NCBI RefSeq assembly: GCF_058153355.1
Contig: NZ_CM177019.1
Length of the DNA stretch: 64,000 nucleotides
Strand: one strand, 5' to 3'
Shown here one piece after another: positions 36,522-39,957 of this stretch. The notes under the pieces were generated by a model that searched no databases, was not told the origin of the DNA, and saw nothing but the letters and a program-made list of their open reading frames with translations. Every line of letters starts with the position of its first letter. Within the stretch, counting starts at the first letter, position 1. The translations under genes were made by a program, and so were the position numbers.

Positions 36522-36982
36522 TTCAGCCTCATTGCAGGGTAGTCAGGAAGTGTTCGCCCAAATTAGCGCGCTGGAGAGAATAAGAATTTTTGAATATTTT
36601 TATGCAGAATAAACAGCCCTATTTCAGGCAGCTATTAAAAATTTGGTTATAAATATGGACAAAACGGGCAGTAACAATAAGTGATGACAATCATCACGTA
36701 AAAAATAGCAAAATAAACAAAATTAGCGATACTTTATGTTTGTGAGCTTATTTCGCGTAGAAAAATAGTTATCTACACAATGTCAATAAGGGCATATTCT
36801 TCAAAGATAACGTCCATTTCGGGTGAATAGCATCCTTCTGCCTGGAAAAAACGACGGTGTTCATTGCGCCAATATTCAAGACTGAGGTCACCTTCACCGT
36901 AAGCGTCTTATCAGGACCGTCTGGCAAATTCCCGATGCTTTGGACAAAGTATCCACCACTAAATTAATAGTGGGTGATAAAA

Positions 36983-37402
36983 ATGTCAGATATACAAAAA
37001 AATGCCTCTCCGGGAAGGCCTAAAGGGTGCCTGAATTATCCTCCTGAATTCAAACAACGACTCATAGAAGCATCATTCCAGCCAGGTGTTTCAATTTCCA
37101 GACTGGCCCTGGACAATGGTATTAATGCCAATCTGTTGTTCAAATGGCGTCAGAAATGGCGGCAGGGGAAGATAAAATTGCCATCATCAGAATCAGGCAG
37201 AGAATCTCAGTTAATTCCTGTCACTATTGATGCCCAACTCCCAACTGCTCCGGCTAATGAGCCACTGACCGCAAGACCGTCAGTAACACCGGAAATACAC
37301 AGCATCTCCTGTGAGATTACGTTCAGAAACGGCACCCTTCGGTTGAACGGGGCAGTGAATGAAAATCTGCTGTCCTTGCTTATACAGGAGCTGAGACGGT
37401 GA
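36983..37402 (+). CDS. IS66-family accessory protein, first ORF
   Basis: MSDIQKNASPGRPKGCLNYPPEFKQRLIEASFQPGVSISRLALDNGINANLLFKWRQKW..., HTH-containing. Confidence 0.8.
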   Translation: MSDIQKNASPGRPKGCLNYPPEFKQRLIEASFQPGVSISRLALDNGINANLLFKWRQKWRQGKIKLPSSESGRESQLIPVTIDAQLPTAPANEPLTARPSVTPEIHSISCEITFRNGTLRLNGAVNENLLSLLIQELRR

Positions 37403-37746
37403 TATCTCTCCCTGCAGGTTCGCGTATCTGGCTGGTTGCAGGTATCACCGATATGCGAAATGGCTTTAACGGCCTGGCCTCAAAAGTTCAGAACGTCCTG
37501 AAGGATGACCCGTTCTCCGGGCATCTGTTCATCTTCCGCGGACGCCGGGGTGACCAGATAAAAGTGTTGTGGGCTGACAGTGACGGACTGTGCCTCTTCA
37601 CCAGACGCCTGGAGCGGGGCCGCTTCGTCTGGCCGGTCACCCGTGACGGCAAGGTGCACCTTACTCCGGCCCAGTTATCCATGCTTCTTGAGGGCATCGA
37701 CTGGAAACACCCGAAACGAACGGAACGCGCTGGCATCCGCATATAA
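37399..37746 (+). CDS. IS66-family second ORF
   Basis: MISLPAGSRIWLVAGITDMRNGFNGL...; GTG start overlaps the upstream stop. Confidence 0.8.
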   Translation: MISLPAGSRIWLVAGITDMRNGFNGLASKVQNVLKDDPFSGHLFIFRGRRGDQIKVLWADSDGLCLFTRRLERGRFVWPVTRDGKVHLTPAQLSMLLEGIDWKHPKRTERAGIRI

Positions 37747-37765
37747 CCCGTTGTAAAGTGAGGAT

Positions 37766-39337
37766 ATGGACACCTCACTTGCTCATGAGAATGCCCGCCT
37801 GCGGGCACTGTTGCAGACGCAACAGGACACCATCCGCCAGATGGCGAAATACAACCGCCTGCTCTCACAGCGGGTGGCGGCTTATGCTTCCGAAATCAAC
37901 CGGCTGAAGGCGCTGGTTGCAAAACTGCAGCGCATGCAGTTCGGTAAAAGCTCAGAAAAACTTCGTGCAAAAACCGAACGGCAGATACAGGAAGCACAGG
38001 AGCGAATCAGCGCTCTTCAGGAAGAAATGGCGGAAACGCTGGGTGAGCAATATGACCCGGTACTGCCATCTCCCCTGCGCCAGTCTTCAGCCCGTAAACC
38101 GTTACCTGCCTCACTTCCCCGTGAAACCCGGGTCATCCGTCCGGAAGAGGAATGCTGCCCGGCCTGTGGTGGCGAACTCAGTTCTCTGGGATGTGATGTG
38201 TCAGAGCAACTGGAGCTTATCAGCAGCGCCTTTAAGGTTATCGAAACACAACGTCCGAAACTGGCCTGTTGCCGGTGCGACCATATCGTGCAGGCTCCGG
38301 TGCCTTCAAAACCCATTGCACGCAGTTATGCCGGAGCGGGGCTTCTGGCCCATGTTGTCGCTGGAAAATATGCAGACCATCTGCCGTTATACCGCCAGTC
38401 AGAAATATACCGTCGTCAGGGCGTGGAGCTGAGCCGTGCCACACTGGGGCGCTGGACAGGTGCTGTTGCTGAACTGCTGGAACCGCTGTATGACATCCTG
38501 CGCCAGTATGTGCTGATGCCCGGTAAAGTCCATGCCGATGATATCCCCGTTCCGGTCCAGGAGCCGGGCAGCGGTAAAACAAGGACTGCCCGGCTGTGGG
38601 TCTACGTTCGTGATGACCGTAACGCCGGTTCGGAAATGCCTCCGGCGGTCTGGTTCGCGTACAGCCCGGACCGGAAAGGTATCCATCCACAGAATCATCT
38701 GGCCGGTTACAGCGGAGTGCTTCAGGCCGATGCTTACGGTGGTTACCGGGCGTTGTACGAATCCGGCAGAATAACGGAAGCCGCATGTATGGCTCATGCC
38801 CGGAGAAAAATCCACGATGTGCATGCAAGAGTGCCCACCGACATCACCACGGAAGCCCTGCAGCGTATCGGTGAACTGTATGCCATCGAGGCAGAGGTCC
38901 GGGGCTGTTCAGCAGAACAGCGTCTGGCGGCAAGAAAAGCCAGAGCCGCGCCACTGATGCAGTCACTGTATGACTGGATACAGCAACAGATGAAAACACT
39001 GTCGCGTCACTCGGACACGGCAAAAGCGTTCGCATACCTGCTGAAACAGTGGGATGCACTGAACGTGTACTGCAGTAATGGCTGGGTGGAAATCGACAAC
39101 AACATCGCAGAGAACGCCTTACGGGGAGTGGCCGTAGGCCGGAAAAACTGGCTCTTCGCGGGTTCTGACAGCGGTGGTGAACATGCTGCGGTGTTGTACT
39201 CGCTGATCGGCACATGCCGTCTGAACAATGTGGAGCCAGAAAAGTGGCTGCGTTACGTCATTGAACATATCCAGGACTGGCCGGCAAACCGGGTACGCGA
39301 TCTGTTGCCCTGGAAAGTTGATCTGAGCTCTCAGTAA
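37766..39337 (+). CDS. IS66-family transposase
   Basis: 523-aa ORF with leucine-zipper-like N-terminus, CxxC...CxxC zinc-finger motif and DDE-type core. Confidence 0.85.
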
Positions 39338-39957
39338 ATATCAATACGGTTCTGGCGAGCCGCTTACCCTTCACCTTCCTTACGGGCAATCTCTTCGGTG
39401 ACATCAGAAAAGCGCAGTAAATGCAGGCCAATAACTCTGATAACACACACAGGCTCACCACGGCTATTTTCTACAATCTTATACTCACCAATCATCGGAA
39501 ATGCTTTGTCTTCAATACATCCTGCCAGCGAACCACAGGAAGCAGTTTTAACACCAGTTGCAATCAACGTTGCGAGGTAATCGGCCAACGCTGCTGAATC
39601 GCCAAAACTACAAAAGGAAGCATGGGGATATTTTTGTGAGATTTTTTCTTTTATGGTCATGAGAATATTTTCGCGATTACGGAAAAAAAATCACATCTTA
39701 ATTACTGTTGATAACCATCAGCAAGAGGATCATTGGTTTTTCTATGTTTAATCTTTTTTATCCGAAGCAGGTCACATTTATGGCTTGATAAATACCTTTG
39801 TTAAAACTCACTTTTGTGTATTTCTCTCAAATAATCCCCTGGAAATTATGCCGGGAGATTATAAAGTTCAGGAGCATTCATTAACAAACCATTCCCGCCC
39901 CACTCCCTGGGGCTTAAATCTCTTACTATTCACCGTTGCAGACGTTTCAAATTCGTA

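Follow-up and report, generated by a model that had tools for sequence, protein, structure and literature searches.

An apparently functional, mosaic IS66-family insertion sequence within an ASCH-domain gene upstream of the operon for a sugar-type ABC transporter on an Escherichia chromosome

In the window, that is, the whole 64-kb stretch of DNA that was analysed, we identified one complete insertion sequence (IS) of the IS66 family, which is 2469 bp long and occupies positions 36899–39367 on the plus strand. Its boundaries were placed by comparison with an empty site in E. coli and with further copies of the element; three independent copies (the one in the window, L002 and L004) coincide in their first and last positions. 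The IS lies within a gene for an ASCH-domain protein, which has yahJ on one side and the operon of a sugar-type ABC transporter on the other. The interval 36773–39660 given for the element in the original prediction is accurate as the extent of the split gene but not as that of the IS. A frameshift in yahJ was observed near the insertion, and an IS621-like element is located nearby.

The terminal inverted repeats of the element, IRL (GTAAGCGTCTTATCAGGACCGT, 36899–36920, plus strand) and IRR (GTAAGCGGCTCGCCAGAACCGT when read on the minus strand, 39346–39367), are imperfect arms of 22 nt that match at 17 of 22 bases and both start with GTAAGCG. Inverted repeats of IS66-family elements are reportedly imperfect, ~20–30 bp long and begin with 5'-GTAA, and the two 22-nt arms share these properties. 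A degenerate pattern of the IS ends matched these two termini alone in the window, with 0 matches expected from shuffled sequences. The element is bordered on each side by the octamer CCTTCACC (36891–36898 on the left and 39368–39375 on the right), of which the entire window contains these two copies and none besides, both strands counted. The length of this duplication is consistent with the published value of 8 bp for IS66 target duplications (PMC6778807). The window holds a single IS copy; a composite transposon or a second copy within it was ruled out, as no further IS ends were found.

Three intact genes on the plus strand make up the coding part of the element. The first, tnpA (36983–37402), encodes a 139-aa accessory protein of the short type with a helix-turn-helix (HTH_Tnp_1, E 6.5e-11), which scored 88.9 bits against the NCBIfam model IS66_ISRel24_TnpA (cut-off 74). 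It is followed by tnpB (37399–37746), which encodes a 115-aa IS66 accessory protein (PF05717, E 7e-40; NF033819, 127.8 bits, cut-off 50). The GTG start of tnpB overlaps the TGA stop of tnpA (GTGA), and the same start position is annotated in the copy of this element from E. albertii. After a gap of 19 nt, tnpC (37766–39337) encodes a 523-aa DDE transposase with matches to LZ_Tnp_IS66, zf-IS66, DDE_Tnp_IS66 and DDE_Tnp_IS66_C. The IS66 catalytic domain of TnpC spans profile positions 1–283 of 284 (PF03050, DDE_Tnp_IS66; E 4.4e-104), the protein scored 479 bits against NF033517 (cut-off 180), and its sequence is identical to that of GenBank entry EON3572377.1. The order tnpA, tnpB, tnpC, the tnpA/tnpB overlap and the short gap before tnpC correspond to the layout of the IS66 family. 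With three ORFs in family order, each scoring above curated Pfam and NCBIfam cut-offs, the family assignment of the original prediction is supported. Based on its intact ORFs, its several insertion sites in different replicons and its near-identical copies, the element is apparently functional.

The ASCH-domain gene is encoded on the minus strand and is present as two pieces: a 5' part comprising codons 1–95 (39376–39660) and a 3' remnant comprising codons 96–136 and the stop (36773–36898). When the IS and one repeat are removed, 39660–39376 and 36898–36773 join into an open 411-nt ORF (136 codons and a stop), consistent with a recent insertion. The interruption of a minus-strand ORF had been recognised correctly, but its size had been put at ~130 codons, and the C-terminal remnant described as 37 aa in fact consists of 41 codons, of which 38 lie outside the duplication. 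A search for homologues of the split ORF was successful. Of the 136 residues of the reconstructed protein, 132 match WP_032183414-type E. coli ASCH proteins, and the protein contains the whole ASCH domain (PF04266, E 2.4e-22, 80 bits against a cut-off of 21.2), with residues 22–133 aligned to profile positions 6–102 of 103. The unsplit gene is annotated as “ASCH domain-containing protein” in ~2,200 complete genomes of E. coli, and two related proteins are found in the PDB (1t62, E 1e-19; 3s9x, E 1.5e-17).

In its present state, the ORF at 39660–39364 (minus strand) encodes 98 aa and, as predicted, takes its stop from the IS, at a TAA (39366–39364) inside the IS end. The protein ends at residue 97 plus one IS-derived codon, and this truncated product is missing the final quarter of the ASCH domain. 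The last 38 residues, with the terminal portion of the ASCH fold, are cut off from their promoter. A candidate for this promoter, identified by consensus match only, lies ~200 nt upstream of the ASCH start (TTGTTA-18-TATAAT, 10/12, 39858–39887, minus strand). We infer that the ASCH gene, which is small and non-essential, was inactivated. The locus is correctly annotated as one IS66-family element and one two-piece ASCH pseudogene, not as a 98-aa gene.

The uninterrupted site was identified in E. coli 2020CK-00188, where a single CCTTCACC (positions 6491–6498 of the compared stretch, L001) is preceded by an identical 30-nt left flank and followed by a matching right flank. The reconstructed 1124-bp site is likewise unsplit in 2209 complete E. 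coli genomes. With one copy in the uninterrupted allele and matching flanks, the octamers represent a true 8-bp target duplication, as had been claimed. An IS-free allele that already carried the repeat twice would have spoken against this, and the octamer proved to be single in the empty site. The insertion gave rise to the 8-bp duplication CCTTCACC through a staggered cut. We assign a negligible probability to the alternative in which the octamers arose by chance or were repeated at the site beforehand and the element is what remains of a decayed IS or belongs to a larger composite structure: besides the single octamer of the empty site, the octamer is found nowhere else in the 64 kb, every ORF of the IS is intact, both flanks are collinear with E. 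coli and no second set of IS ends is present in the window. The locus is thus very probably the product of transposition of a complete, apparently functional IS66-family IS into codons 96–98 of the 136-codon ASCH gene on an Escherichia chromosome, a textbook and ordinary event of an already known kind.

Because no later decay is visible in the IS or in either half of the gene, we infer that the insertion is recent. The earlier assessment of the event as “probably recent” is supported by the perfect duplication, by IS proteins identical to those of another copy and by the undamaged reconstructed gene. The junction between flank and IS was found in 0 of 5426 complete E. coli genomes, and the insertion was seen in one public sequencing run, which makes it a handy clonal marker. 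An exact scan of species-representative genomes with the first 34 nt of the IS returned no match.

The sequences flanking the IS are collinear with E. coli and show ~94–95.5% identity to strain W150. Relative to 2020CK-00188, mismatches number 1 over the 300 bp on the left side of the IS and 11 over the 300 bp on the right side. Over longer distances, the left 3.5 kb is 99.6% identical to 2020CK-00188, with 22 genomes at 99% or above, whereas the right (yahJ-side) 2.9 kb reaches a best identity of 96.8% among the 5426 complete genomes. In terms of divergence from E. coli genomes, the transporter side stands at 0.4% and the yahJ side at >3%, and the switch occurs within ~100 bp of the insertion. 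Based on these comparisons, the host is an Escherichia chromosome that departs to some extent from mainstream E. coli in this region. The contrast between the two sides, in mismatches as well as in identity, and the change in topology of a three-way comparison at the junction are consistent with arrival of the IS-bearing allele by homologous recombination, or with a recombination tract that ended at the IS, the insertion itself being older and having happened elsewhere. However, similar divergence switches occur approximately every 1.5 kb on the left side, the chance of a switch within 100 bp of the IS is ~7%, and the yahJ–yahI side varies strongly even from one E. coli strain to another. We consider such a history improbable, and if true, it would alter the place of transposition alone and not the nature of the feature. 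Marginally less probable still is a scenario in which, provided that the coincidence of switch and insertion point is not due to chance, the IS would act as a heterology barrier that fixes the end of an inter-lineage recombination tract and, together with the yahJ frameshift and a 1-nt insertion in a CRP-like site, would mark a locus that is being dismantled.

All four genes of the downstream ABC transporter are free of frameshifts relative to 2020CK-00188. The first gene (35535–36521, minus strand) is intact and encodes a periplasmic substrate-binding protein with 326 of 327 residues identical to its counterpart in this strain. The corresponding values are 493/494 for the ATPase (34002–35501), 323/323 for the permease (33038–34009) and 314/318 for the second permease (32085–33071). 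By its sequence, the binding protein is of the sugar type; the more specific names LsrB, assigned by PGAP (NF011937, 110 bits against a cut-off of 384), and RhaS (TIGR02637, 136 bits against a cut-off of 342) were rejected.

The left end of the IS is 377 nt away from the first ATG of the substrate-binding protein (36521), in agreement with the predicted distance of about 380 bp from the operon. The native spacer of 251 bp that separates the first transporter gene from the ASCH stop (36522–36772, minus strand) is whole, lies on the transporter side of the IS and shows 98% mean column identity in the alignment. We identified a CRP-like palindrome in the spacer at 36681–36697, and this CRP-core-like site is the sole match with at most one mismatch in 13 kb of the intact locus. 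In the alignment, the site carries a 1-nt insertion, an extra T at ~36684, which suggests a CRP-like operator altered by this insertion. As a terminator for the ASCH gene, the hairpin at 36681–36697 was discarded as weak (fold z −1.7, poor T-run). A consensus scan, which is blind to activator-dependent promoters, identified no sigma-70-like promoter in the spacer and no promoter-like site facing the transporter from the left end of the IS, the genes of which are oriented away from the transporter.

The transporter probably keeps its own promoter, because the whole 251-bp spacer with its CRP-like site remains attached and the IS genes are transcribed in the other direction. This anatomy argues against capture or destruction of a promoter by the IS. 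Given the retained spacer and the orientation of the IS genes, loss of read-through from the ASCH promoter is the sole likely effect on the transporter, so that altered expression is possible through polarity alone. That the insertion materially changes transporter expression, whether by polarity, by regulatory DNA moved 2.5 kb off or by an outward promoter, appears doubtful, though less so than the recombination history considered above. The ASCH gene and the transporter do run in the same direction with no strong consensus promoter between them, and as a terminator, the hairpin that follows the ASCH stop is a weak candidate (fold z −1.7). Also, ISCro1 located 440 bp upstream of afaA cut afaA transcription ~2.5 log2-fold in E. 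coli ST131 (PMC8764528), a precedent that indicates that IS66-family insertions at such a distance can matter. Against this, the complete and highly conserved spacer with its CRP-core-like site stays with the transporter, the IS genes read away from it and the left end offers no outward promoter-like site. As in the present locus, ISCro1 in ST131 is an IS66-family element ~400 bp before an operon start; there, it was inserted in the regulatory region between divergent promoters and lowered transcription (PMC8764528), whereas the IS described here is inside the upstream gene and leaves the whole intergenic spacer untouched. A possible effect on the transporter amounts to a small question of gene polarity.

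Close relatives of the element occupy other sites. The window IS is 99.8% identical to a copy in GCA_047897835.1, an “E. coli” assembly (L004), from which it differs at five nucleotides, all synonymous, with identical TnpA, TnpB and TnpC. It is 95.9% identical to copies on E. albertii plasmids (e.g., pESA134_1, NZ_CP070285.2). These copies are collinear with it over their full length and agree with it in their ends and in their three genes, for which the PGAP annotations are transposase, IS66 accessory TnpB and IS66 family transposase. They differ in their location: the E. albertii plasmid copy is found within a Tn3-family transposase gene and has its own 8-bp duplication (GAATAAGG), and the GCA_047897835.1 copy is beside a serine-protease autotransporter gene and has another (CACCGGAC).

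Comparison with ISCro1, for which PGAP-annotated ISCro1-family copies and not the ISfinder reference sequence served as proxy, divides the element into two parts: positions 502–2469 are 97% identical to these copies and positions 1–501 show ~68% identity in most genomes. By ISfinder rules, a name extends to elements whose DNA is at least ~95% identical along the element. Identification as ISCro1 proper was thus rejected, the 97% applying to one part alone and TnpA and length being different. Judged by these identities, the element is a mosaic in which an IRL-tnpA module of another kind precedes an ISCro1/IS679-type tnpB-tnpC-IRR, the joint falling exactly on the tnpA/tnpB overlap, and represents a further example of module exchange at this junction in the IS66 family. 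ISCro1/IS679-type elements of E. coli and Citrobacter rodentium share with it tnpB, tnpC and the right inverted repeat at 97% DNA identity (7 of 523 residues differ in TnpC and 3 of 115 in TnpB), ends that start with GTAA, and an 8-bp duplication, which is GATTTAAG for the ISCro1-like copy in E. coli A34. Unlike in the window IS, their left 500 bp (IRL and tnpA) belongs to another module, with an IRL of GTAACCGTCTCATTTAA instead of GTAAGCGTCTTATCAGG and, in ISCro1-like elements, a TnpA of 216 aa instead of 139 aa. The 2469 bp of the window IS compare with 2704 bp for the A34 copy and with 2824 bp reported for ISCro1 in ST131 (PMC8764528). The prototype of the family, IS66 of Agrobacterium tumefaciens, has the same three-gene layout and an 8-bp duplication that differs from site to site (PMC6778807), but is distant in sequence, and membership of the window IS in the family is established by family profiles and not by DNA similarity.

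The element occupies positions 36899–39367 (2,469 bp) and is bounded by the octamer CCTTCACC, which direct inspection of the sequence placed at 36891–36898 and 39368–39375 and which has no further copy on either strand of the 64-kb window. It starts with GTAAGCGTCTTATCAGGACCGT and ends with the reverse complement of GTAAGCGGCTCGCCAGAACCGT; these terminal inverted repeats match at 17 of 22 positions, and a degenerate pattern for the IS ends gave two matches, both at the element ends, and none in 100 shuffles. The three plus-strand ORFs represent the canonical IS66 set. The first, tnpA (36983–37402), encodes a 139-aa protein with an HTH_Tnp_1 domain that scores 88.9 bits against the NCBIfam IS66-like TnpA equivalog (cut-off 74). 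Its stop codon overlaps the GTG start of tnpB in the motif GTGA; tnpB (37399–37746) encodes 115 aa and matches PF05717 (E 7e-40) and NF033819 (127.8 bits, cut-off 50). The third, tnpC (37766–39337), encodes 523 aa and matches NF033517 (479 bits, cut-off 180), with leucine-zipper, zinc-finger, DDE_Tnp_IS66 (positions 1–283/284, E 4e-104) and C-terminal domains.

The original prediction that the intact 8-bp direct repeats are a real target duplication was confirmed by the uninterrupted allele of E. coli 2020CK-00188, where the octamer is present once (...gactgaggtcaCCTTCACCttccttacgggc...), the 30-nt left flank is identical and the right flank matches. Eight base pairs is also the published length of IS66 duplications (PMC6778807). 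The reconstructed pre-insertion sequence (1,124 bp) is unsplit in 2,209 complete E. coli genomes, at identities of up to 98.2%, and the intact locus is annotated there as encoding an ASCH domain-containing protein, with yahJ on one side and the gene for an ABC-transporter substrate-binding protein on the other. The junction between flank and IS was found in none of 5,426 complete E. coli genomes. The feature is an ordinary IS66-family insertion with both target duplication and empty site verified, and this very element and others of its kind are already in public databases, annotated as IS66 family.

The insertion was expected to split a small minus-strand ORF of ~130 codons into a 98-aa part, ended by a stop from the IS, and a 37-aa C-terminal remnant. 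The 98-aa part (39660..39364) is present, with its TAA stop within the last bases of the element, but once the element and a single octamer are removed the gene reads open over 136 codons (39660..39376 joined to 36898..36773), and the remnant comprises 41 codons, including 38 outside the duplication. The split ORF has homologues, as the restored protein contains an ASCH domain at residues 22–133 (PF04266, E 2.4e-22) and matches an E. coli ASCH protein at 132 of 136 residues; solved relatives include 1t62 and 3s9x. Because the truncated product lacks the last quarter of this domain, it is reasonable to infer that ASCH function has been lost. A poly-T run ahead of the ASCH start (39682–39684) contains a 1-nt difference that creates an in-frame TGA and removes the upstream ATG of the 146-aa annotation used in UTI89 and other strains; this difference supports the 136-aa start at 39660.

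The insertion had also been called probably recent, and several observations agree. The 8-bp duplication is perfect, neither half of the ASCH gene contains an additional frameshift or stop, and the five nucleotide differences between this IS and the copy in GCA_047897835.1 are all synonymous, so that all three IS proteins are identical in the two copies. These features fit a recent event. A Logan contig from run SRR28786219 is 100% identical to 39339–42373 and therefore represents the same strain or clone sequenced independently. The contig ends 29 nt inside the IS; such breaks at repeats are typical of short-read assembly.

The four ABC transporter genes are intact, and their proteins, comprising the binding protein (35535–36521), ATPase (34002–35501) and two permeases (33038–34009 and 32085–33071), are 99–100% identical to those of 2020CK-00188. 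The distance from the IS left end to the first ATG is 377 nt, in line with the ~380 bp originally estimated. The native 251-bp ASCH–transporter spacer, an unusually conserved stretch (mean column identity 98%), is still joined in full to the transporter. Where the E. coli locus is intact, the spacer carries a CRP-core-like site, cGTGA-N6-TCACA, ~165 bp upstream of the first transporter gene, which is the sole match at ≤1 mismatch in 13 kb of the intact locus and suggests that the transporter has its own activator-dependent promoter. Transcription of the IS genes is directed away from the transporter, and a consensus scan identified no outward-facing promoter at the IS left end. On these grounds, the IS could plausibly affect the transporter only by removing any read-through that starts at a promoter-like sequence ahead of the ASCH gene (39887–39858, consensus scan). 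ISCro1 inserted 440 bp upstream of afaA lowered afaA transcription (PMC8764528), which shows that such distances can matter; however, that insertion lay within the regulatory region, whereas the present one leaves the spacer whole. Separately, an extra T within 36681–36697 relative to 2020CK-00188 (locus positions 6283–6298) abolishes the CRP-core-like match and leaves a perfect 7-3-7 palindrome, GTGATGA-TTG-TCATCAC; it may damage regulation of the transporter independently of the IS.

The window aligns collinearly with the prpC-yahK-(transporter)-yahJ-yahI-...-betT-hyx region of E. coli, sharing ~94–95.5% identity with strain W150. The 3.5 kb left of the IS are at least 99% identical to 22 genomes (99.6% to 2020CK-00188), and the 2.9 kb on the right reach at most 96.8% among the 5,426 complete genomes. 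Against 2020CK-00188 there is one mismatch in 300 bp on the left (36599–36898) and 11 in 300 bp on the right (39376–39675), and a three-way comparison placed a topology change at the insertion point. A recombination breakpoint within ~100 bp of the insertion is a lead only. Left of the IS, relatedness switches in a similar way roughly once per 1.5 kb, which gives the coincidence of breakpoint and IS a ~7% chance, and it could be coincidental. On the right, yahJ (amidohydrolase family; 39956–41341, minus strand) has a 1-nt insertion after nucleotide 1161 (indel ~40179); the resulting frameshift leaves a product of 390 rather than 460 aa, so that yahJ is probably a pseudogene, and the Logan contig encodes the same truncated product. 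An IS110-family, IS621-like element (~42380–43660) lies between yahI and yahG, and its plus-strand ORF (42571–43551) encodes a 326-aa transposase with DEDD_Tnp_IS110 and Transposase_20 domains. Its position coincides with that of the annotated IS621 in W150, to which it is ~97–99% identical within flanks of ~94–95%.

Other copies of the IS66-family element have exactly the same boundaries at both ends, each with its own 8-bp duplication. The copy on E. albertii plasmid pESA134_1 (95.9% identical, duplication GAATAAGG) splits a Tn3-family transposase gene. The GCA_047897835.1 copy (99.8% identical, duplication CACCGGAC; contig ABXYKR010000031.1, 1–7572) has as neighbours a serine-protease autotransporter gene (Peptidase_S6) and two further transposase genes carrying rve domains, in what looks like a plasmid or island rich in mobile elements. 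A related ISCro1-like copy of 2,704 bp in E. coli A34 is flanked by GATTTAAG, and the four target octamers share no common motif. E. coli 2013C-3033 carries a truncated version of the window element that retains IRL, tnpA and most of tnpB; it is 96.4% identical to IS positions 1–806, with no tnpC annotated downstream.

In complete E. coli genomes, copies annotated "IS66-like element ISCro1 family" align at 97% to IS positions 502–2469 only, that is, to tnpB, tnpC and the right end. This ISCro1/IS679-type similarity begins exactly at the overlap of the tnpA stop and tnpB start (position 502, window 37399–37402). The left 500 bp show ~68% identity in most genomes and 95% only in a few chromosomal and plasmid copies. 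Whereas ISCro1-type copies have a 216-aa TnpA and left repeat GTAACCGTCTCATTTAAACCGT, the window element has a 139-aa TnpA and left repeat GTAAGCGTCTTATCAGGACCGT, and the DNA of the two IRL–tnpA modules is unrelated. The element is also shorter, at 2,469 bp compared with 2,704 bp in A34; ISCro1 in ST131 is reported to measure 2,824 bp (PMC8764528). ISCro1 proper was rejected as its identity, since left 500 bp, TnpA length, left repeat and total length all differ. Relative to the A34 copy, only 7 of 523 TnpC residues and 3 of 115 TnpB residues differ. Judged from these left-end and TnpA differences together with near-identical TnpB and TnpC, the element is a mosaic of an ISCro1/IS679-type transposase module and a different IRL–tnpA module. 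The similarity boundary at the tnpA/tnpB overlap and the truncated 2013C-3033 copy point to exchange of modules among IS66-family elements.
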